A DNA stretch of 64,000 nucleotides from Escherichia phage KIT03. Below, piece by piece: positions 2,589 to 42,673 of the stretch. The stretch is from sequence record AP018932; one strand, 5' to 3'. Below the pieces are notes generated by a model. The model had not been told where the DNA came from and made no database searches. It saw only the letters and a program-made list of their open reading frames with translations. The position numbers and the translations under genes are program-made. Each line of letters opens with the position of its first letter. Within the stretch, counting starts at the first letter, position 1.

Positions 2589-3591
2589 AGCTCACCAACT
2601 CAATCCAAGCCGGACGAAGTACATCTTGTACCATTTTAACTAATTCCTTTTTAACCAAAGAAGGATTATCCGCTTGAGTTAGAGTAATACCTTCACGAGA
2701 AGTTTCTTCCAAAATATCTTGAACAGTTAATCCCATCACCTTTCCAAAATCTTTTGGACCAATTTCGCCAATTTTGGAAATAACGTTATTTACTCGGTTC
2801 AATGTAACATAACAAGCTAAAATTCCAACCAATTTGTTATCAGCTTCTGACAATTCAACTTTAGCTTTAATAGGCTTATCAGACTTTTTCTTTTCACTAA
2901 ATTTAGAATTCTTGCATTTGATGGCCACACGATTGCGATTAGGCAGCCAAGAAGGATAACAAGGTTTCAATACATATCCTTCAGCAGTAAATACTTCGCC
3001 TTTTGCTTCGGCATTCCAAACACATTTATTTGCATCAACTAATCCAGCATGGTCTACTGTAAAATTATAATCTTGGACGACAGAATCTAAATCATTTGGC
3101 AATTTAATAAGCTCTTCAAATTTACCGCGACCTAAAAGTGGAGCCATTTTAAATTTAAATGTATTACAGAATGATTCCATCATATAATCATCGACATAAG
3201 TCACATCACCACTTTCTGTAGTGACAATAATGTCAAATACATAAAAATCTTTATCACCATAATCAACATTCTTCTGAATGCCAGGTCCAGCGAATTCGCC
3301 AAAGACTTGATAAGATACAACCGCTGAAGTTTCCATAATATCTTGTACTGCTTTAATGGAATCAGCGTAATTCTTTAGAATAATTTCATACCCAAAGAAA
3401 TCTTCAGCAGGAATAATCGGTCCAGTACGTTTAGCGTAAGTTACTTTATCACGCTCAATAATCAATGAGAAATTTGTGCCGTGAATCTTTTCACGAGCTA
3501 CCCATTCGCCGCCAGTCAATCCTAAACTGTAAAGTTTTTCAATGAACTTAGAATTGTAATGATTTTCAAGACTGCTATACTTTTTAAACAT
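2587..3591 (-). CDS. rnlB: RNA ligase 2 (Rnl2)
   Basis: 334-aa ORF; N-terminus contains the nucleotidyltransferase lysine motif (KIHGTN). Confidence 0.93.
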
Positions 3592-3600
3592 AATTAATCC

Positions 3601-3879
3601 TCAAAATGTAATTTCTAACCAATCACCATCACGCTGATCACTATTGACTTTAAAGCTGAATCCTTCTTTTCTCAGCCAATCACCAATTTCTTCAGTAATC
3701 AATTTATCGCGAGCAGTACAATAATAACTAAAATATGTTTTACCTTGTTCAGCTGCTTTATTAGCAAGTTCTGAAAAATCTTTAATAAAACACTCTAGCT
3801 TAAACTGTTTACTTTTTAATGCTTTTTCGCGTAATTGATTAGCAAAAGATTCATTTTCATAAAGATCATACTGTTCCAT
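3601..3879 (-). CDS. 24.2: hypothetical protein (24.2 position)
   Basis: 92-aa ORF in conserved position between rnlB and hoc. Confidence 0.7.
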   Translation of the reverse strand: MEQYDLYENESFANQLREKALKSKQFKLECFIKDFSELANKAAEQGKTYFSYYCTARDKLITEEIGDWLRKEGFSFKVNSDQRDGDWLEITF

Positions 3880-4081
3880 TTTTCACCTTTTTATTAATAT
3901 GTCTTTTTCTATAGACAACTTTTTCTCGAGTTTCAAATTTATTCTTAGCAGTCATAGCTCGAGCCCATAATACAGCCACTTCTTTCGCCTGTAAGTTTAA
4001 TTCACGAGCAATTTCAATGAATGACTTTCCAGACTCATGAAGAGTAAACACCACAACCTCAGTTCTCATAATCAATCTCAT
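3866..4081 (-). CDS. 24.3: hypothetical small protein with helix-turn-helix-like segment (24.3 position)
   Basis: 71-aa ORF; segment GKSFIEIARELNLQAKEVAVLW looks like an HTH. Confidence 0.6.
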   Translation of the reverse strand: MRLIMRTEVVVFTLHESGKSFIEIARELNLQAKEVAVLWARAMTAKNKFETREKVVYRKRHINKKVKNGTV

Positions 4082-4136
4082 GTTATCGAGTTGGTGCCAT
4101 TATATACATCGTTTTCTGACTATGTTTTGTGTGCTT

Positions 4137-4164
4137 TCAAAATGAAGAAAGGGGCCGAAGCCCC
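4137..4164 (-). terminator. hairpin terminator downstream of hoc
   Basis: GGGGC-UUCG-GCCCC on the - strand followed by U-rich tract. Confidence 0.6.
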
Positions 4165-4170
4165 TTACGA

Positions 4171-5301
4171 TTATGGATAAGTATAGATGATACCATTTTC
4201 TAAAGCAGTTTTATGAATGATGTATCCATTACGTGATTCTTGAACATCAACTTCTGGATAGTCTTTCATCATCTTCTGAAGAGTGTAACGATGCAGGTAA
4301 TATTTACTATCTGGATCGTCAGTTTTCCAATCTTTACCTTCTTCAGTCATTTTTTGGATTTCATCCATAACCCACCAACCGCACCAGATGTAAGCTGAAG
4401 TACGGTGTGGAAGAGGATGAACATAAGGCAATTCACCTTCTGGTTCCGGAGCAACTTTATCAGTCACTTGAACTTGACCTGTTGTTTTAGCTGTTTTGCT
4501 ATCATAATCAGTTGCTGCAACGACAGCAGTAACTTCAATAGTTTGACTTCCAACAGATGAGGTATCGACAGTATATACGTTAGTTGACCCTTCTACAGGA
4601 GAAGAATCTTTCTTCCACGAGTAAGTAATTTGTGCTTCTTCTGGAGCATCCGTAACATTAGCCGTAAATGTAGCCGAAGCATCTTGCTGAACGTTAATAG
4701 AAGGAGGAGTCAATGTAACCTGTGGATTCATTGTCTTCTTATTAACCGTTAATGATACTTCATTCGAAGTAACTTCCTTTTCATTGTAATTTTCAGCAGT
4801 TACTTGGGCTACGCATTTAATTCTTTTTACTCCACTTGTAGTTGGAGTATAGCTAAATGTAGAGTTAGTTTCTCCACCAACTTGTGAATCATCTACATAC
4901 CACTGATACGTAGCAGATGCGCCTGATGGCTGCGAAGCCAAAGCAGCGGTAAATTTAACAGCTGTTCCAATCACTCCAGCCGCAGGACTAGCAGGAGTTA
5001 CGGCTAAGGTAGTCGTCTGTGTCTTATTTTTAACTGTGATAGTTGTTGTCGCTTCAGCCGTTTCCGGGCCTCCTTCAGAAAGTGTATTTGTTGCAACTAC
5101 TTTAATAGTCTTTTGACCAGCAGGACCTTTTAATACATAATCAAAAGTTGCTTCAGACCCATCTTGTGGAGCATTATCTACACTCCAAGCATAAGTAATA
5201 GTTCCACCTCCAGTTTCACCACTGGGTGCAGCAGTAAACTGCTTAGTCTCATCTATAACTCCAGTAGGTGTTTTAGGAGTTATATCAACTGTAAAAGCCA
5301 T
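4171..5301 (-). CDS. hoc: highly immunogenic outer capsid protein Hoc (Ig-like domains)
   Basis: 376-aa ORF with repeated Ig-like segments (TYSW/TYQWY motifs). Confidence 0.93.
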   Translation of the reverse strand: MAFTVDITPKTPTGVIDETKQFTAAPSGETGGGTITYAWSVDNAPQDGSEATFDYVLKGPAGQKTIKVVATNTLSEGGPETAEATTTITVKNKTQTTTLAVTPASPAAGVIGTAVKFTAALASQPSGASATYQWYVDDSQVGGETNSTFSYTPTTSGVKRIKCVAQVTAENYNEKEVTSNEVSLTVNKKTMNPQVTLTPPSINVQQDASATFTANVTDAPEEAQITYSWKKDSSPVEGSTNVYTVDTSSVGSQTIEVTAVVAATDYDSKTAKTTGQVQVTDKVAPEPEGELPYVHPLPHRTSAYIWCGWWVMDEIQKMTEEGKDWKTDDPDSKYYLHRYTLQKMMKDYPEVDVQESRNGYIIHKTALENGIIYTYP

Positions 5302-5310
5302 AAGTTATCC

Positions 5311-5991
5311 TTATTTTAATGTTACGAAAGAAGAATTACGTGTTTCACGAATTAGAACTGATCCGTCACGGTTAATGTAGTAAATTAAGCTAAACAGAGT
5401 TTGATGTGCCGACGCGTGTTCAAAACTAGTTGGGTGAGATTTCCAATCCGGAGTTTCAGCAATCCATTGGTAAATCCACCAAGGAACAGTACAGAATCCT
5501 GGATTTTTTCCAATCAACTGAAGATTCGGGCTAAAGTTTTCCGGAAGAGTAAATACAGACGGCTTTTCAGATTCAATAATCTCAGCTACAGCCTGTTCGA
5601 ATTTTTCTTCAACAAAAGGAGTATCTTCAATCAAAACATCGGTATTTTCAGGAATTTTATCCGTTTCTACTACTTCAATTTTAATATCAGATTTAACTGG
5701 AGAATCAATCAGAAGTGCTGCTTCTGGATTAACTTCTTCATCGTCATATTTTAATCCCTCTGCAGCATCAGCAGCATCAATTAAGTCTTTAATAGATAAC
5801 CCATCAGTCTCTGGCATAGGTTCACTAGCGAGCTTCTGGAGGGCTTCTTCAATATCAACAACGATATTATCAAAAGATTTATTCTTTTTGACCTTTATAC
5901 CAAACTGTTCAGCATATTCAGCTAATTTAGCTTTAGCTTCTTTATTATCATCAAGAGCCTTCAGCTCTGCAATATAATCTTTATCTATCAT
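5311..5991 (-). CDS. inh: inhibitor of prohead protease (Inh)
   Basis: 226-aa ORF adjacent to hoc. Confidence 0.85.
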   Translation of the reverse strand: MIDKDYIAELKALDDNKEAKAKLAEYAEQFGIKVKKNKSFDNIVVDIEEALQKLASEPMPETDGLSIKDLIDAADAAEGLKYDDEEVNPEAALLIDSPVKSDIKIEVVETDKIPENTDVLIEDTPFVEEKFEQAVAEIIESEKPSVFTLPENFSPNLQLIGKNPGFCTVPWWIYQWIAETPDWKSHPTSFEHASAHQTLFSLIYYINRDGSVLIRETRNSSFVTLK

Positions 5992-6004: not shown

Positions 6005-6012
6005 TATAAATA
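6005..6012 (+). promoter_or_regulatory. late-promoter motif TATAAATA upstream of seg gene
   Basis: exact TATAAATA 29 bp upstream of the ATG at 6041. Confidence 0.5.
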
Positions 6013-6040
6013 TAGATATATTTATTACTCGGAAAATAGT

Positions 6041-6658
6041 ATGTACCACTTTGTATATGAAACAACAAATCTAATAAATGGTAAAAAGTATATAGGAAAA
6101 CACTCTACTGATGACTTAAATGATGGTTACCTTGGTTCCGGTAAGGCAATTCAGCAGGCTATAAAGAAATATGGTGAAAACAATTTCTCTAGAACAATAC
6201 TAAAAGAGTTTAAAACTTCCGAAGAAGCGTACATGTATGAAGAAGAAATTATAACTCCTGAACTAATAAAAAGCAAAAATTATTATAATATGAAACCTGG
6301 TGGAATTGGTGGAATTGTTATGACTACAGAGGTTATAGCAAAGATGAAAGAATCTTCCGCTAAAAGATTTGAAAACTCACCAGGCACGGTATTAGGTAAA
6401 ACTTGTTACACTAATGGAACTAAAAATATTTTTATTAAACCTGGAGAACTTGTTCCAGAAGGATTTGTAAAAGGGATGGTTCATCCTAATAGAAAGTCCA
6501 GAAAAGGATGTAAAGTCAAACCGACTACCACAGGAACTTTTTGGGTCAATAATGGCGCAATAAATAAATTAATACAACCAGACGGTATTATTCCCGACGG
6601 ATTTATTAAAGGTCGTCTCATGAAAAGAGATTCTAAAGGCAAATTTAGTAAGGCATAA
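6041..6658 (+). CDS. segE: GIY-YIG free-standing homing endonuclease (Seg family)
   Basis: 205-aa ORF; N-terminal GIY-YIG motif (VYETTN...GKKYIGKHS); sits between inh and uvsW on the opposite strand to its neighbours; segE versus segD assignment is uncertain. Confidence 0.8.
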   Translation: MYHFVYETTNLINGKKYIGKHSTDDLNDGYLGSGKAIQQAIKKYGENNFSRTILKEFKTSEEAYMYEEEIITPELIKSKNYYNMKPGGIGGIVMTTEVIAKMKESSAKRFENSPGTVLGKTCYTNGTKNIFIKPGELVPEGFVKGMVHPNRKSRKGCKVKPTTTGTFWVNNGAINKLIQPDGIIPDGFIKGRLMKRDSKGKFSKA

Positions 6659-6660
6659 TT

Positions 6661-8169
6661 ATGGATATTAAAGTACATTTTCACGACTTCAGTCATGTAC
6701 GCATCGATTGTGAAGAGAGCACGTTCCACGAATTAAGAGATTTCTTTTCGTTTGAGGCCGATGGATATAGATTTAACCCTCGCTTCAGATATGGCAACTG
6801 GGATGGACGAATCCGTCTTTTAGATTATAATCGCCTTCTTCCATTCGGCTTAGTCGGGCAAATTAAAAAGTTCTGTGATAACTTTGGCTATAAAGCCTGG
6901 ATTGACCCACAAATTAACGAAAAAGAAGAATTATCAAGAAAAGATTTTGATGAATGGCTTTCTAAATTAGAAATCTATTCAGGAAATAAAAGAATTGAAC
7001 CACACTGGTATCAAAAAGATGCAGTGTTCGAAGGATTAGTTAATCGTCGTAGAATTCTTAATCTTCCAACATCTGCAGGTAAATCTTTAATTCAGGCTCT
7101 GCTTGCGCGATATTATTTGGAAAATTATGAAGGTAAAATTCTTATCATTGTTCCAACAACTGCTCTGACAACTCAGATGGCTGATGACTTCGTTGACTAT
7201 CGTTTATTCAGTCATGCAATGATAAAGAAAATTGGCGGCGGAGCATCAAAAGATGATAAATATAAAAATGATGCACCAGTCGTTGTTGGTACATGGCAAA
7301 CTGTAGTTAAACAACCAAAAGAATGGTTCTCACAGTTTGGAATGATGATGAATGATGAATGCCATCTTGCTACAGGAAAAAGTATTTCATCTATCATATC
7401 AGGTTTAAATAACTGCATGTTCAAATTTGGTCTATCTGGTTCATTACGTGACGGCAAAGCCAATATCATGCAGTATGTTGGAATGTTTGGCGAAATATTT
7501 AAGCCAGTAACGACTTCTAAATTAATGGAAGATGGGCAAGTAACTGAGCTAAAAATTAATAGTATTTTTCTTCGTTATCCTGATGAGTTCACTACTAAAT
7601 TAAAGGGAAAAACTTATCAAGAAGAAATAAAAATTATTACGGGGCTTAGTAAAAGAAATAAATGGATCGCTAAATTAGCTATTAAGCTTGCGCAGAAAGA
7701 TGAAAACGCTTTTGTCATGTTTAAACATGTATCGCACGGTAAAGCTATTTTCGATTTAATTAAAAATGAATACGATAAAGTTTATTACGTATCAGGGGAA
7801 GTTGATACCGAAACACGCAATATAATGAAAACCTTAGCTGAAAATGGTAAAGGAATAATTATAGTAGCTAGTTATGGTGTATTTTCTACTGGTATTTCAG
7901 TTAAAAATCTGCATCACGTTGTTTTAGCACACGGTGTTAAATCAAAAATCATTGTATTACAAACAATCGGTCGTGTATTACGTAAGCATGGTTCTAAGAC
8001 AATAGCAACAGTCTGGGACCTCATAGATGATTGTGGTGTTAAGCCAAAATCTGCTAATACGAAAAAGAAATATGTTCATTTGAACTATCTTTTAAAACAC
8101 GGCATTGATCGTATTCAGCGCTACGCAGATGAAAAATTCAATTACGTAATGAAAACAGTTAATTTATAA
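6661..8169 (+). CDS. uvsW: UvsW SF2 DNA/RNA helicase
   Basis: 502-aa ORF with helicase motifs (LPTSAGKS Walker A, DECH box). Confidence 0.95.
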   Translation: MDIKVHFHDFSHVRIDCEESTFHELRDFFSFEADGYRFNPRFRYGNWDGRIRLLDYNRLLPFGLVGQIKKFCDNFGYKAWIDPQINEKEELSRKDFDEWLSKLEIYSGNKRIEPHWYQKDAVFEGLVNRRRILNLPTSAGKSLIQALLARYYLENYEGKILIIVPTTALTTQMADDFVDYRLFSHAMIKKIGGGASKDDKYKNDAPVVVGTWQTVVKQPKEWFSQFGMMMNDECHLATGKSISSIISGLNNCMFKFGLSGSLRDGKANIMQYVGMFGEIFKPVTTSKLMEDGQVTELKINSIFLRYPDEFTTKLKGKTYQEEIKIITGLSKRNKWIAKLAIKLAQKDENAFVMFKHVSHGKAIFDLIKNEYDKVYYVSGEVDTETRNIMKTLAENGKGIIIVASYGVFSTGISVKNLHHVVLAHGVKSKIIVLQTIGRVLRKHGSKTIATVWDLIDDCGVKPKSANTKKKYVHLNYLLKHGIDRIQRYADEKFNYVMKTVNL

Positions 8170-10527: not shown

Positions 10528-10539
10528 TATTTATAAATA
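10528..10539. promoter_or_regulatory. overlapping divergent late promoters (TATTTATAAATA) for gene 26 (-) and gene 51 (+)
   Basis: palindromic TATTTATAAATA gives TATAAATA on both strands between the divergent start codons. Confidence 0.6.
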
Positions 10540-34079: not shown

Positions 34080-35258
34080 TTAAAAGTATTTTTTAAAACT
34101 CATCATAACTTTATCATCAACATCATTATCAATCTGTGCTACAAGGTAAGATGACAGCTCTACTTCTTGCGGTGCAGATTGAACATTATCAGAATTAAGA
34201 TATTCACGAATCCAAGGATATGGATGTTTAACCGGAGCATCGGTAATTGGGCATGGAAGACCACACTGTTTCATACGAGATACAGTTAAGTAATCAATAA
34301 AGCTCCACATGCTATTTGTATTTAATCCAGGAACATCGCCATCTTTAAATAAATGAACTGCCCAATCTTTTTCTTGGCGGTTAACTTCCATGAAAATATC
34401 AACTGCTTCTTGTTCACACTCTTGAGCAATTTTAACCCATTGATCGCCATCAGTACCAGATTGAAGTTGACGAATAATATATTGGGTGCCTTTAAGGTGA
34501 AGCTGTTCATCGCGTGCAATGAACTTCATAATCTTGGCATTACCTTCCATGATTTCCATGTTCTTATGGAAGTTAAAGGTACATGCGAAAGATACATAAA
34601 AACGAATAGCTTCCAATGCGTTGATTACATGCAAACAGAGGTAAAGAGATTTCATTAGCTCACGCTTCCAATATGTCTCATGCTCAATAGCATCTTCAAT
34701 AACGTCTTCGTCTGCATTAATTTCTTTTTGGTATTCGATATCAGCTTTAGCGTTTTCCCAATAACGAGTTTTAATCAGAACATCATCATAATAACGTCCA
34801 ATGGATTCAGCACGTTTCATAATAGCTTCATCTAATACAATTTCATCAAATACCTTCGATGGATCAGTATAAAGATTTCGCATGATATGAGTATATGAAC
34901 GACTGTGAATAGTTTCACTAAAAGTCCATGTAGCAACCCATGTATCAAGGCTCGGGTCTGAAATTAATGACATAAGTACAGCAGACGGCGCACGACCCTG
35001 AATGCTATCCAAAAGTGATTGATACTTCAGATTATTAGTAAAAATATTTTGCTGATACTGAGGAAGCTTATTAAACTGTGCAGCATCCATCATCAAGTTT
35101 ACTTCTTCAGGCCGCCAGAAAAATGATAATTGCTTTTCGGTCAAATCTTCAAAAACTTTATGACGTTGAATATCATAACGCGCAATACCAAGACCTGAAC
35201 CAAAAAACATAGGTTCTTTTAAAACATCAACTGGATTTGTATTAAAAACTGTGCTCAT
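34080..35258 (-). CDS. nrdB: ribonucleotide reductase small subunit NrdB (uninterrupted, no intron)
   Basis: continuous 392-codon ORF recognised as NrdB. Confidence 0.95.
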   Translation of the reverse strand: MSTVFNTNPVDVLKEPMFFGSGLGIARYDIQRHKVFEDLTEKQLSFFWRPEEVNLMMDAAQFNKLPQYQQNIFTNNLKYQSLLDSIQGRAPSAVLMSLISDPSLDTWVATWTFSETIHSRSYTHIMRNLYTDPSKVFDEIVLDEAIMKRAESIGRYYDDVLIKTRYWENAKADIEYQKEINADEDVIEDAIEHETYWKRELMKSLYLCLHVINALEAIRFYVSFACTFNFHKNMEIMEGNAKIMKFIARDEQLHLKGTQYIIRQLQSGTDGDQWVKIAQECEQEAVDIFMEVNRQEKDWAVHLFKDGDVPGLNTNSMWSFIDYLTVSRMKQCGLPCPITDAPVKHPYPWIREYLNSDNVQSAPQEVELSSYLVAQIDNDVDDKVMMSFKKYF

Positions 35259-35309
35259 AAATTTTCCGCTTAGTTAATAGATAGTGACTCGTCCGTGAGT
35301 CAAATTATA

Positions 35310-37574
35310 TCATAATTTACAGGATGAACAATCTTCAGCTTTTGGAGTTTCTATTTCATAATCATCAGTACCAGAACCGTCACGGGTATTATGATAATAG
35401 AAATTTTTTCCGCCAAAATACCAAAAATACAAAAGGTCATCAATCATTATTGACATTGGAACCTTGCCTTTAGGGAAGATTTGGGGGTCATAGTATGTAT
35501 TCGCCGAAGCTGATTGACAAACCCATTTCAGCATAATAGCTACCTGTGTAAGATAAGGTTTATTACCTTTCTTAGCTAATTTCCATGTATAGTCGTAAAG
35601 GTCTATGTTATGCTCAATATTGGGCACGACCTGATTAAAGGAGCCCTCTTTTGATTCTTTAACAGAGACTGGTCCACGTGGAGGCTCGATACCGTTTGTA
35701 CTGTTAGAAACTTGGGAAGATGACTCACATGGCATAAGTGCTGATAATGTGCTATTACGGATGCCAAAGAGCTTAAGGTCTTCCCGCAGCGCCGACCAGT
35801 CACAAACGTATTTTGGAGCTGCGATTTGGTCAATCTTTTTATTGTACCAGTCGATAGGTAATTCGCCTCGAGACCAACGAGTGTCTGAATAATATTCGCA
35901 AGGTCCTTTTTCTTTGGCGAGTTTAATGGATGCTTTAATGAGTCCATACTGTAATCTCTCAAATAGTTCATGTGTTAAATCGTTAGCATCTTCATAAGAA
36001 GCAAAGTTACTTGCCAACCAAGCTGCATAGTTAGTAACACCTACACCGAGGTTACGACGCTTTTTAGCTTTTTCTGCTTCAGGAACTGGATATCCTTGGT
36101 AATCCAAAAGATTATCAAGAGCACGAACCTGGACTTCTGCCAATTCATTAATTTTATCTTGGTCTTGCCAGTCAAAATTATCCAGTACGAATGCAGAGAG
36201 AGTACACAATCCAATTTCAGCATCAGGACTATTCACATCATTTGTTGGAATAGCAATTTCACAGCACAAGTTACTCTGACGAATAGGTGCCTTTTCACGA
36301 ATAAACGGAGTATAGTTATTCGTATTATCAGTGAACTGTACATAAATCCTTGCTGTTCCTGAGCGTTCAGTCATGAGCAATTCAAATAGTTCACGAGCTT
36401 TAATACGCTTTTTACGAATATTAGGGTCTTTTTCTGCGGCTTCATACAATTCACGGAAACGGTCTTGGTCTTTAAAATAAGAATAATAAAGCTCTCCGCC
36501 CATTTCATGGGGACTGAACAAAGTAATGTAATCGTTCTTTCCAAAACGTTCCATCATCAAATCATTCAGTTGAACACCATAATCCATATGACGAATGCGG
36601 TTTTCTTCTACGCCTTTGTTATTTTTCAAAACAAGAAGATTTTCAACTTCCAAATGCCAAATAGGATAATAAGCAGTAGCAGCGCCGCCACGAATTCCAC
36701 CCTGTGAGCATGATTTAACAGCAGTCTGAAAATGTTTCCAAAAAGGAATAACACCAGTATGGCGTACTTCACCCATGCCAATCTTAGAACCTTCAGCACG
36801 AATCATACCAACGTTAATACCAATTCCAGCGCGTTTAGAGATATATTCAACAATTGAAGCGGAAGCCTTATTGATAGACTTTAATGAATCACCTGCCTCA
36901 ATAACAACGCATGAACTAAACTGCCGGGTTGGAGTACGGCAACCAGCCATAATAGGAGTTGGCAATGAAATCTGTCGAGTAGATACTGCTTCATAAAAAC
37001 GGATAACGTGTTTTAATCTATCAACAGGTTCATCTTGATGCAATGCCATTCCAATAGTCATAAATGCAAACTGTGGAGTTTCATAAATTTGACCAGTGGT
37101 TTTATCTTTAACTAGATATTTTTCTTTTAATTGCATCGCCCCGGAATAAGTAAATTCCATATCCCGCTCGTGCTTAATTTTTGATTCTAAAAATGTAATT
37201 TCTTCTGCAGAATATTTTGACAACAATTCAGGGTCGTATTTACCTTCATTTACACAGTAAGAAATATGGTCAATAAATGAACGTGGTTCATACTGCCCAT
37301 AAACATGCTTACGAAGAGCAAACATTAAACAGCGTGCAGCTACATATTGATAATCAGGTTCTTCAACCGAAATAGAATTCGCAGCGGCCTTAATGACAAT
37401 AGTCTGAATATCATCAGTTGTCATTCCATCACGGAGATAAGATTTAATATTTTCATATAATTCATAAGGATCTACTGATGTTCCTTCAGCTGCCCAAGAT
37501 AAAACTTTAATAATTTTTTGTGGGTCAAAGCTCTGAGAAACACCACTACTTTTGATAACATTAATTAATTGCAT
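35310..37574 (-). CDS. nrdA: ribonucleotide reductase large subunit NrdA
   Basis: 754-aa ORF with active-site NLCCEI/SNLC-type and C-terminal CSSCKL motifs. Confidence 0.96.
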   Translation of the reverse strand: MQLINVIKSSGVSQSFDPQKIIKVLSWAAEGTSVDPYELYENIKSYLRDGMTTDDIQTIVIKAAANSISVEEPDYQYVAARCLMFALRKHVYGQYEPRSFIDHISYCVNEGKYDPELLSKYSAEEITFLESKIKHERDMEFTYSGAMQLKEKYLVKDKTTGQIYETPQFAFMTIGMALHQDEPVDRLKHVIRFYEAVSTRQISLPTPIMAGCRTPTRQFSSCVVIEAGDSLKSINKASASIVEYISKRAGIGINVGMIRAEGSKIGMGEVRHTGVIPFWKHFQTAVKSCSQGGIRGGAATAYYPIWHLEVENLLVLKNNKGVEENRIRHMDYGVQLNDLMMERFGKNDYITLFSPHEMGGELYYSYFKDQDRFRELYEAAEKDPNIRKKRIKARELFELLMTERSGTARIYVQFTDNTNNYTPFIREKAPIRQSNLCCEIAIPTNDVNSPDAEIGLCTLSAFVLDNFDWQDQDKINELAEVQVRALDNLLDYQGYPVPEAEKAKKRRNLGVGVTNYAAWLASNFASYEDANDLTHELFERLQYGLIKASIKLAKEKGPCEYYSDTRWSRGELPIDWYNKKIDQIAAPKYVCDWSALREDLKLFGIRNSTLSALMPCESSSQVSNSTNGIEPPRGPVSVKESKEGSFNQVVPNIEHNIDLYDYTWKLAKKGNKPYLTQVAIMLKWVCQSASANTYYDPQIFPKGKVPMSIMIDDLLYFWYFGGKNFYYHNTRDGSGTDDYEIETPKAEDCSSCKL

Positions 37575-39393: not shown

Positions 39394-39401
39394 GTGTTAT
39401 T

Positions 39402-40231
<830 letters not shown>

Positions 40232-40242
40232 ATTATCTCCTA

Positions 40243-40575
40243 TTAAAAAGGATCAGGAACATACCCACTAGCTTTAATCATTTTAACTAATGTTACCATT
40301 CCTTTGTTAACTGCTTGTGAGATTTCATCAAAAACTTCATCATTAAAAAGTTCTAGCACACCCTTCTGAACTTTTAATTTACAGCCAACAATTTCGTCAT
40401 CGCCTATAGTAAATTCATTACCGCCAATTCCACCGAAAAACTTAATTACCCCAGTTAACTGTCTTCCACGAGAATATGGGTCATGTGATAAAGTAATATG
40501 AGTCACCCCAGGTACAGTTTTAAATTGACAGCGAATGTTTACTTGAGAAATTCCAGTTACATGAATGTCAGACAT
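40243..40575 (-). CDS. hypothetical protein
   Basis: 110-aa ORF. Confidence 0.6.
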   Translation of the reverse strand: MSDIHVTGISQVNIRCQFKTVPGVTHITLSHDPYSRGRQLTGVIKFFGGIGGNEFTIGDDEIVGCKLKVQKGVLELFNDEVFDEISQAVNKGMVTLVKMIKASGYVPDPF

Positions 40576-40585
40576 AATATTTTCC

Positions 40586-40828
40586 TCAAACAGACTTTTT
40601 CACAATTTTCCAATCAGCTTTAAACTGTTCAACGTCAGAATGGTAAATCCAGAATCCTGCGCTTTCTCCATCCTCATAAAGAGGGCATCCATCACATTCA
40701 TCTTCCCACCCCATGTCACGTAAAAGATGTTCAGCTTTTTCAACAAGTTCAGAATCTTTACCGATGATATTAAAATACCATTTACCTTTAACTTCTGAAT
40801 CTTTGATGCTCTGACGTTGTAATCTCAT
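40586..40828 (-). CDS. hypothetical protein
   Basis: 80-aa ORF downstream of an early promoter (40854..40883). Confidence 0.6.
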   Translation of the reverse strand: MRLQRQSIKDSEVKGKWYFNIIGKDSELVEKAEHLLRDMGWEDECDGCPLYEDGESAGFWIYHSDVEQFKADWKIVKKSV

Positions 40829-40882
40829 TTTATTCTCCTTAGTTGATAGGGTAATAGTATCACACTACTACCCTTCTGTAAA

Positions 40883-41245
40883 CTACTTTTTGAAAGTTTT
40901 TCGCAAAAGTTCAATGATTTCATCTACATTGTTTTCGTCTACAATGCAGTGAATTTTTGTTACGCCAGAAACCTTGTCTTCTATTTCATCTTCAGAAGTC
41001 GGTTCTTTATACTCACGAAAACAATGAAATTCATCTTCGCAGACGTTGAAGTAAAAATGCTTTCCATTGGCGCATTCTACGTGTTTTACTACTTTAAATC
41101 CATCAGCAAAGAAAACTTCTTTAACTTCAAACCATCCGCCATTTTCTTGAATAGCTTTAACTATTAATGAATTAGAACGCGGGCGATAATTAATAAATGT
41201 ATCAATAAGTCTTGGAACAAGTTCGTACTTTTTATCAATATACAT
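40883..41245 (-). CDS. hypothetical protein
   Basis: 120-aa ORF. Confidence 0.6.
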   Translation of the reverse strand: MYIDKKYELVPRLIDTFINYRPRSNSLIVKAIQENGGWFEVKEVFFADGFKVVKHVECANGKHFYFNVCEDEFHCFREYKEPTSEDEIEDKVSGVTKIHCIVDENNVDEIIELLRKTFKK

Positions 41246-41289
41246 TATGTTTTCCTCATTTTAATAGGGGCTTGATATCCCCTCGATAA

Positions 41290-41541
41290 TTACTGTTCAA
41301 TCAATCCCATGTAAAATTCTGCATCTTCAGCATCCATACCATCACAGTATTCATTAGCCATAAATCGTTCAAGAACTTCTAAAGGACCTTCAATAACAAT
41401 AGAAAAATTGCAATAATTGGGATCATCATGAATACTTGTGATACTAAGTTCAGGATAACGATTACGAATAATTTCTTCAATATATTCAAAATCAACGATG
41501 TCAATATCAACTTTAGCCATATTGTTTTCCTCTTTAATCAT
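41290..41541 (-). CDS. hypothetical protein
   Basis: 83-aa ORF downstream of an early promoter. Confidence 0.6.
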
Positions 41542-41563
41542 CAGCAGTATTGCCGATAGTTGT

Positions 41564-41593
41564 ATAGTACCATAAAGCTTTATGCTTGTAAAC
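41564..41593 (-). promoter_or_regulatory. T4-type early promoter (GTTTAC, 18 bp spacer, TACTAT) with A/T-rich upstream element
   Basis: gtaaac at 41588..41593 and atagta at 41564..41569; module repeated at 58271..58300 and 61924..61953. Confidence 0.6.
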
Positions 41594-41604
41594 CGTTTTG
41601 TGAA

Positions 41605-41644
41605 AAAATTTTTGAAATAAAAAAGGGGACCTCTAGGGTCCCCA
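41605..41644 (-). terminator. hairpin terminator downstream of gene 32
   Basis: GGGGACC-CUAG-GGUCCCC then UUUUUUAUUU on the - strand. Confidence 0.65.
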
Positions 41645-41665
41645 ATTAATTAGTAATATAATCTA

Positions 41666-42574
41666 TTAAAGGTCATTCAAAAGGTCATCCAGGTCCGTGT
41701 CATCAGCACTAGATGAACTGCCAGAGCTTGAGCTCATAAAATCATCTTCAGTTTTTGTATTGAAGTCATCAACATTGAATGCATCCAAATCATCAGCAAC
41801 TTTATCAGCTTTCTTAGCAGCAGTTGCTGCGGCACCACCCATAGCAGCAGTTCCCATAACTTGACTGAACTTAGTGCTCAGTTCTTCAAACGATTTGAAT
41901 TTATCTTTAGAAGTCATTTCAGAAAGGTCAACCATTTGTTCGAACAGTTCTTTCTGGAAAGATTCATCATCAATGTTTGGAATCGCAGATTGATTCAGGA
42001 ATTTAGATTCGTCGTAGTTACTAAAACCAGAAACTTGTTTAACTTTCAGTACAAAATTAGCACCTTCCCACGGACAAGTTACATCAACCGGAGTTTCACC
42101 CATTTCAACATCAACTGCAATCATTGCGTTGATTTTATCCCAGATTTTCTTACCGAAACGGTATTTAAATACTTTACCTTCATTTTCTGGAGCAGCTGGG
42201 TCTTTTACTACAAGAATGTTAGCCCAGTAAGAAGTTTTACGTTTAACAAGACTGTACTCTTTATTATCAGTGTTGTACAAATCATTTTTACTGATGTACT
42301 GACATACTGGACAAGAATCATAATCACCGTGGGTAGATGAGCAATTTTCGATATACCATTTACCGTTTTTCTTGAAACCGTGATTTACAAGAATTGCGAA
42401 TGGTGCTTGTTCATCATTTTTAGACGGAAGAAAACGAATTACTGCTTGACCGTTACCCGCATTGTCGAGTTTCAGTTTCCACTCGCCTTTATCTTCAGAA
42501 GAAAAACCACCTTTATTTCCAGCCAGTTTAGCCATTTGTGCAGCGAGTTCAGCAGTAGATTTACGTTTAAACAT
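41666..42574 (-). CDS. 32: single-stranded DNA-binding protein gp32
   Basis: 302-codon ORF recognised as gp32 including the acidic C-terminal tail. Confidence 0.97.
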
Positions 42575-42640
42575 TTTTATTTCCTTTTTAATTTAATTAA
42601 CAGTTGGTGCTATGACGATGTATGACCTCATAGCTGGTCA
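42575..42640 (-). promoter_or_regulatory. gene 32 translational operator (mRNA pseudoknot plus unstructured A/U-rich leader)
   Basis: leader reads UGAGGUCAUACAUCGUCAUAGCACCAACUG followed by UUAAUUAAAUUAAAAAGGAAAUAAAAAUG, matching the known autoregulatory site. Confidence 0.75.
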
Positions 42641-42673
42641 GTGAGATAATTATAATCTATTTATAATAAGCAA

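Follow-up and report, generated by a model that had tools for sequence, protein, structure and literature searches.

segE of Escherichia phage KIT03, a T4-type free-standing homing endonuclease gene at the inh-uvsW junction

A stretch of 64,000 nucleotides of Escherichia phage KIT03 (AP018932), referred to here as the window, was analyzed with a focus on the gene that separates inh from uvsW. This gene, segE, is an ORF of 205 aa with an ATG start on the plus strand at 6041..6658, and a preliminary description of the locus had given both its coordinates and its nature correctly. The left neighbour is inh (hoc.1), a minus-strand gene of 226 aa at 5311..5991 that matched PHROG 1051, 'minor head protein inhibitor of protease' (2e-102). 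It is followed on the same strand by hoc (4171..5301), which encodes an Ig/PKD-repeat protein of 376 aa according to Pfam, and by rnlB to the left of hoc. On the right side lies the plus-strand helicase gene uvsW (6661..8169, 502 aa), in which Pfam detected UvsW_N (8.3e-44) and helicase domains. The ATG of uvsW starts 2 nt past the segE stop codon (6656-6658). The whole gene order, rnlB-24.2-24.3-hoc-inh-segE-uvsW-uvsW.1-uvsY, matches that of T4.

The nucleotide identity of 6041..6658 with T4 segE was 99.2% over 618/618 nt, and the DNA identity with RB7 segE was 99.8%. Five nucleotides differed from T4 segE, and four of these differences were synonymous. At the protein level, 204 of the 205 residues were the same as in T4 SegE (T4p183, UniProt P18060), with E97D in the linker as the sole change. 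The location between inh (hoc.1) and uvsW, the promoter, and the 2-nt gap before uvsW are likewise shared with T4 segE. In contrast, the rest of the window is another mosaic, without the td and nrdB introns, mobE, and segG of T4. The closest matches to the window in the phage collection were at 97-98%, namely vB-Eco-KMB40 for the left 25 kb (97.5%) and Sa45lw for the right 25 kb (96.9%). segE has been known as a T4 homing endonuclease since the early 1990s. We are highly confident that 6041..6658 is the orthologue of T4 segE in a mosaic T4-like Tequatrovirus, that is, a free-standing GIY-YIG homing endonuclease gene sited and homing as set out below, and the ORF should simply be labelled segE. 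The first identification as a gene of this kind between inh and uvsW was thus borne out by T4 synteny, by family hits, and by Table 1 of PMC2988022.

The GIY-YIG catalytic domain occupies aa 1-90 (6041..6310, plus strand) and includes FVY (4-6), YIG (17-19), E67/E68, and N83. The positions of FVY and YIG agree with the spacing of about 10-11 residues, in the first two beta-strands, that characterizes the GIY-YIG superfamily. The Pfam model PF19835 (SegE_GIY-YIG) scored 36.5 bits, above its cut-off of 25, while the general GIY-YIG model PF01541 scored 21.5 bits, slightly below its cut-off of 22.6. The protein also matched PHROG 314, 'homing endonuclease' (1.3e-43). In an alignment of 24 homologues with identities down to 31%, the residues Y6, N10, Y17, G19, H21, D28, Y30, G32-S33-G34, Y44, G45, F49, and N83 were invariant, and E67 was close to invariant.

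A single-sequence search of the PDB with SegE returned no GIY-YIG match. With the SegE family profile, the catalytic domain of I-TevI (1MK0) was the only PDB match, which was weak (E 0.9) and colinear across the whole domain. The AlphaFold model of SegE had a mean pLDDT of 80, with values of 92-98 over aa 1-80, and placed the GIY/YIG motif strands at 2-10 and 16-23. The best Foldseek matches of this model were the I-TevI structures 1MK0 and 1LN0 (probability 1.00, E 6e-3, target-normalised TM 0.61-0.64). The alpha/beta GIY-YIG fold was considered settled because the fold comparison reached I-TevI, where the sequence searches did not suffice. A borderline PDB match of aa 39-99 to the phage tail tube protein gp13 (8zdj, 8zdl; E 0.008) was also obtained and was set aside as probably due to chance.

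When the catalytic residues were checked by alignment, the Tyr, Tyr, Glu, and Asn positions were all present, whereas the canonical Arg could not be placed. SegE E68, one residue off E67, aligned with the metal-binding Glu of I-TevI, E75, and N83 aligned with N90. Both the MAFFT alignment and the profile-to-1MK0 alignment put I-TevI R27 within an I-TevI-specific insertion. At the place of the R27 helix, the SegE family has an invariant loop, H21...D28-x-Y30-x-G32-S33-G34. SegE shares with I-TevI, which is encoded in the td intron of T4, the catalytic fold and the motif order Tyr6, Tyr17-x-Gly19, Glu, Asn, but lacks the helix that carries R27. The SegE family might use a catalytic loop that replaces the canonical GIY-YIG arginine, a speculative proposal that belongs together with the three-part block of ~770 nt discussed further below.

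The canonical catalytic Arg that the alignment did not find could also be read as a sign that segE no longer homes, being a remnant that is inactive or in decay, or a protein domesticated for some other role; other T4 endonuclease genes are defective, for example I-TevIII according to its annotation. However, the Arg-less loop is invariant throughout the family, including the active T4 SegE. The KIT03 ORF is full length, it carries one conservative change relative to the biochemically active T4 enzyme, and its nucleotide differences from T4 segE are synonymous in four of the five cases. Furthermore, the sporadic distribution of the gene and its tightly linked flanking tract, both described below, are as ongoing homing predicts. 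Loss of homing can hardly be credited on this evidence, and segE is treated here as a homing endonuclease gene, with the cleavage and homing activity of the KIT03 protein extrapolated from the 99%-identical active T4 enzyme.

The C-terminal half of SegE is presumably the DNA-binding part of the protein. The putative DNA-binding region (6395..6616, plus strand) consists of two copies of a ~28-aa motif, at aa 119-146 (6395-6478) and aa 165-192 (6533-6616), which are identical at 11 of 28 residues. The motif pattern is xWxTNGxxNxxI...IPxGFxKG within SegE and WxTNGxxNKxI...IPxGWxxGR as the family consensus. The second copy is kept across the SegE family, as is the first copy in some homologues, and each copy was modelled by AlphaFold as a beta-hairpin. 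No Pfam family matched the C-terminal half at E <= 10. The motif stretch matched the C-terminus of the HNH-endonuclease family phrog_10820 (6.8e-8), and as a separate observation, the ~28-aa motif looks like a DNA-binding module common to GIY-YIG and HNH homing endonucleases.

I-TevI has a known DNA-binding domain of its own. SegE resembles I-TevI in its late expression and in having two domains, with the nuclease at the N-terminus and a DNA-binding part, putative in SegE, at the C-terminus. The two proteins differ in that the SegE C-terminal region is made of two beta-hairpin repeats rather than the DNA-binding domain of I-TevI, and in that SegE is free-standing whereas I-TevI is intron-borne.

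The gene is not universal among related phages. It was present in 161 of 499 phage records with inh/uvsW flanks at least 90% identical to those of the window, which is about a third, and segE at >=95% identity was found in 157 records. The comparison with relatives without the gene revealed empty inh-uvsW sites, in which the interval was 616 nt shorter than in the window; the ORF itself is 618 nt long.

Such a distribution could in principle have arisen by loss, with segE ancestral at the inh/uvsW site and the segE-less phages derived by repeated precise deletion rather than the carriers by invasion. The occurrence of SegE-like genes at this same site in three genera would fit that history. 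However, the empty sites have a clean promoter-to-uvsW layout with their own uvsW 5' allele, which was found in 343 records, and no segE remnants were seen in the four Tequatrovirus empty sites that were read. Gain by homing, on the other hand, has been shown experimentally for T4 x RB30. Repeated deletion is consequently regarded as very unlikely, and invasion of an originally empty site is preferred. Occasional loss of segE may still occur, and F26 is a possible case.

The region between inh and segE was examined for promoters. A T4-type late promoter has its motif at about -10 and no -35 element, shortly precedes a late gene, and directs gp55/gp33/gp45-dependent transcription that begins just beyond the motif. 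An exact motif of this type, TATAAATA, is located at 6005-6012 on the plus strand and is separated from the segE ATG by 28 nt, in agreement with the distance of '29 bp upstream' reported earlier. The window holds 12 copies of TATAAATA, compared with 8.6 +/- 2.8 in shuffled sequences, so that the count is not above chance. Their placement gave a different picture, with 8 of the 12 copies lying 17-34 nt 5' of a start ATG whose ORF is on the same strand and comprises >=50 aa. By position, the ORFs behind these eight copies are gene 24, segE, 51, 34, 26, alt, uvsY.-2, and a 218-aa ORF beyond gene 34. A chance match at 6005-6012 is unlikely, because the placement of the motif is non-random and because this copy is conserved in other genera.

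The same promoter was found in genomes without segE. In the empty-site phages RB68, SA20RB, FriedrichZschokke, and F26, the inh ATG is 13 nt away from TATAAATA, and uvsW starts 29 nt after the motif, a spacing equal to that of segE in the window. The identity of these four phages to the window begins at the inh start and extends 16 nt past TATAAATA (to 6028), after which the sequences diverge. The left insertion junction and the segE translation-initiation region thus fall at 6029..6040 on the plus strand, where a weak Shine-Dalgarno sequence, GGA, is present at 6031-6033. The SA20RB record annotates TATAAATA before uvsW as a T4 late promoter. Furthermore, the motif is conserved at this place in two members of Mosigvirus, NBG1, which carries the gene, and Shf125875, which does not, as well as in Gelderlandvirus STP4-a. 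Since segE-less genomes share the promoter, segE was inserted between an older uvsW late promoter and the uvsW ATG. On this comparison of sequences, 6005-6012 is the ancestral, resident uvsW late promoter and was not brought by the element.

The alternative is that TATAAATA is the element's own promoter, carried along with segE in a self-contained, late-expressed cassette. The motif does sit directly 5' of the segE ORF, and PMC2988022 lists segE among the endonucleases whose promoter lies in non-coding DNA upstream. Against this, the empty sites have the same motif together with 24 nt around it, at equal distances to the inh and uvsW ATG codons, and the insertion junction (~6029) is downstream of TATAAATA. 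None of the five empty-site relatives examined lacked the motif. An imported promoter is accordingly most improbable, and with the resident promoter as the preferred reading, the earlier statement that the gene is preceded by a late-promoter motif stands as far as the motif is concerned, but the motif is not the element's own and also occurs in segE-less relatives. A suitable label for 6005-6012 would be shared segE/uvsW late promoter.

A second, near-consensus late promoter, AATAAATA (7/8), is located at 6019..6026 on the minus strand, directed toward inh/hoc and back to back with the motif at 6005-6012. At the equivalent position, STP4-a has an exact minus-strand TATAAATA, and the T4 record X14869 annotates putative minus-strand promoters at this spot. 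A late promoter upstream of inh is also mentioned in PMC2988022. The 49-nt spacer between inh and segE thus holds two back-to-back late promoters. In this light, the opposite strand of segE relative to hoc and inh, pointed out in the preliminary description, is true but no oddity, because the late-promoter junction is divergent by nature and segE points the same way as uvsW. Apart from this locus, two exact copies of TATAAATA overlap on opposite strands at 10528-10539 between genes 26 and 51 (TATTTATAAATA), forming a second divergent back-to-back late-promoter pair that resembles 6005-6026.

A search for a MotA-box middle promoter before segE found none. An RNA hairpin hiding the segE ribosome-binding site, as in I-TevI, segB, and mobE, was also absent (z = 0.02), so that segE differs from I-TevI in lacking an RBS-sequestering hairpin. 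This absence is plausible, because no same-strand early or middle transcript lies upstream of segE.

In a time-resolved transcriptome and proteome of T4 (PMC9697503), segE, inh, and uvsW were all classed as 'late-RNA, late-protein', and the first appearance of the SegE protein coincided with that of UvsW and Inh. Expression of UvsW from a late promoter has also been reported (PMC3016281). The late expression proposed for segE is supported by this T4 classification, and the KIT03 gene would be expected to behave in the same way.

Features that may serve uvsW expression were found within segE itself. A candidate late promoter for uvsW, AATAAATA (7/8), is embedded in the 3' part of segE at 6559..6566 on the plus strand. 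The codons homologous to 6559-6566 contain an exact TATAAATA in NBG1 and AATAAATA in STP4-a, at protein identities of only ~62-64%. Promoters for the downstream gene have been described as embedded in segE (PMC2988022), and the motif at 6559-6566 fits that statement. This putative embedded promoter probably drives uvsW, and the conservation of this probable internal promoter across genera is a refinement from the present analysis. The uvsW Shine-Dalgarno sequence, AAGG, is located at 6650..6653 (plus strand) inside the last segE codons, with the same layout in NBG1 and STP4-a. We infer from this arrangement that segE and uvsW may be translationally coupled, and the two genes would be carried on one transcript.

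The 5' end of uvsW differs strongly between carriers and non-carriers of segE. Compared with RB68, an empty-site phage, uvsW was 73.9% identical over nt 1-138 and 99% identical over nt 139-240. The first 180 nt contained 36-37 differences from the empty-site phages, compared with 0-4 differences per 60 nt beyond. Among the first 46 codons, 28 differed (23 synonymous and 5 non-synonymous), plus one codon indel after the ATG. Several of the synonymous swaps are multi-step, such as TCG/AGC and CGC/AGA. These multi-step swaps suggest that the recoded tract is an old imported sequence, which is compatible with resistance but no proof of it. The recoded tract, located at 6661..6796 (~136 nt, plus strand), was inherited with segE and is presumed to be a cleavage-resistant form of the SegE target.

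The segE-type uvsW 5' allele was present in 156 records at >=95% identity and in no record at 90-95%, and the empty-type allele at >=90% in the 343 records mentioned above. The agreement of 156 allele records with 157 segE records indicates that the gene and the tract are nearly perfectly linked. The linkage is not absolute, since the empty-site phage F26 has a recombinant uvsW that is empty-type over nt 1-111 and segE-type over nt 115-136. On the other side of the gene, inh showed no segE-linked divergence, with 17-30 differences per 681 nt that were similar against segE-carrying and segE-less phages.

A corresponding pattern was obtained independently in Mosigvirus. Between NBG1, which has the gene, and Shf125875, which lacks it, 31 differences were counted in nt 1-180 of uvsW, compared with 0-2 differences per 60 nt in most of the later bins and 5 in one bin. 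A sharply bounded, linked tract is expected from homing with co-conversion and agrees with the published uvsW target. The recoded tract would confer resistance to SegE. As judged from these alignments, the inherited block is not confined to the ORF but reaches ~136 nt into uvsW.

SegE-like genes at the same inh/uvsW site, with TATAAATA upstream, are present in Mosigvirus NBG1 (243 aa) and Gelderlandvirus STP4-a (211 aa). Both share with KIT03 segE an ATAAATA core embedded near the 3' end, and the NBG1 element also shares the HEG-linked divergent uvsW 5' tract. They differ from KIT03 SegE in protein sequence, with an identity of ~62-64%, and NBG1 adds NUMOD3-like linker repeats. Several further observations were made at these loci. 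The STP4-a segE homologue is full length, with 211 aa from a GTG at 2481, and the record annotates an internal start. At 3119-5537 of STP4-a, a Salmonella phage, an intein-like sequence (CFDGDTLIKTPNGD...) breaks into uvsW after ~240 codons; a 291-aa ORF comes next, and the helicase then resumes. This intein-like insertion is a second mobile element within uvsW, the target gene of SegE. In Escherichia phage vB_Eco_F26 (1795-3777), besides the empty segE site and the recombinant uvsW 5' allele, a gene for a MobE-like HNH endonuclease occupies the usual place of uvsW.1 and overlaps uvsW at its end.

The window was also compared with T4 for other mobile elements. The td intron with I-TevI (1016 bp) is missing at the junction 38440/38441, and the nrdB intron with I-TevIII (~600 bp) is missing at 34582-34585; the td and nrdB proteins are uninterrupted in the window. 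Likewise, mobE (~700 bp) is missing at 35259-35313 and segG (~620 bp) at 42638-42672, and segD is absent, as genes 23 and 24 leave no room between them. No further endonuclease genes were detected in the window by tblastn with SegE, SegG, I-TevI, MobE, I-TevIII, and two other queries, and segE was the sole T4-type homing endonuclease gene found there. The proposal that the genome otherwise lacks intron-borne endonucleases holds for td and nrdB, while nrdD, the third T4 intron site, is outside the window. KIT03 therefore keeps segE, yet is without five T4 mobile elements in these 64 kb: the td and nrdB introns, mobE, segG, and segD. Separately, the frd-to-gene-32 region (39394-42637) showed 85-90% identity to T4 with indels, compared with 94-98% around it, and forms a hypervariable run of small ORFs.

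The activity of SegE has been described for T4. Table 1 of PMC2988022 gives T4 SegE as an active, free-standing endonuclease, inserted at inh/uvsW, with uvsW as the target gene. According to the passages on SegE in PMC2330249, which cite Kadyrov 1997, homing in T4 x RB30 crosses was almost 100%, was accompanied by co-conversion of the flanks, and needed intact segE and homology. The same passages report a cleavage site in the hoc.1-uvsW region of the segE-less phages RB30 and RB52. For SegE cleavage and biased inheritance versus RB30 and RB52, these passages and PMC2988022 cite Kadyrov et al. 1994 and 1997. [quoted passage not shown] The unidirectional gene conversion in mixed infection that had been suggested for KIT03 is thus already published for T4 segE in the T4 x RB30 cross, as treated in PMC2330249, and would apply to KIT03 by analogy.

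The free-standing endonucleases SegF, SegG, and MobE of T4 are behind localized marker exclusion (PMC2988022, PMC2330249). SegE has in common with them intronless homing, in which a neighbour gene that is essential or useful is cut in the endonuclease-less phage and the flanks are co-converted (PMC2988022, PMC2330249). It is unlike them in that their targets, 56, 32, and nrdB, and their insertion sites differ from those of SegE.

These results are best explained by the following course of events. segE, lying between the uvsW late promoter and the uvsW ATG, would be transcribed late, probably in one message with uvsW. On co-infection with a segE-less relative, SegE would cut the relative at the inh-uvsW junction or at the 5' end of uvsW. 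The segE-carrying genome would then serve as the recombination template for repair of the break, and in this repair segE would be copied into the relative along with the ~136 nt of uvsW next to it. As this stretch is recoded mostly at synonymous sites, the carrier is presumably a poor SegE substrate. Meanwhile, uvsW would be kept on by read-through from the upstream promoter, by the Shine-Dalgarno sequence in the last segE codons, and probably by the second late promoter at 6559-6566.

A more far-reaching reading is that the spreading unit is not the 618-nt ORF but a block of ~770 nt (~6029-6796) composed of the endonuclease, an internal late promoter that maintains uvsW expression, and a recoded 136-nt uvsW 5' end acting as immunity allele, with an Arg-replacing loop in the family. 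We hold this reading only tentatively, as rather improbable in its full form. Its further part, that SegE-like elements from two or more genera share this three-part layout, is likewise doubtful. If this were true and undescribed in such detail, it would add modestly to a known system, through the limits of the tract, the promoter inside segE, and an active site without the Arg.

The homing of segE, its target gene, and its late expression are already published, so that the discovery value of the locus is low. The refinements obtained here, namely the host promoter, the ~136-nt uvsW extension, and the probable internal promoter, are consistent with published generalisations on the free-standing endonucleases of T4. 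KIT03 segE therefore represents a clean textbook case of a selfish endonuclease gene placed between a host promoter and its gene, with a recoded piece of the target in tow.
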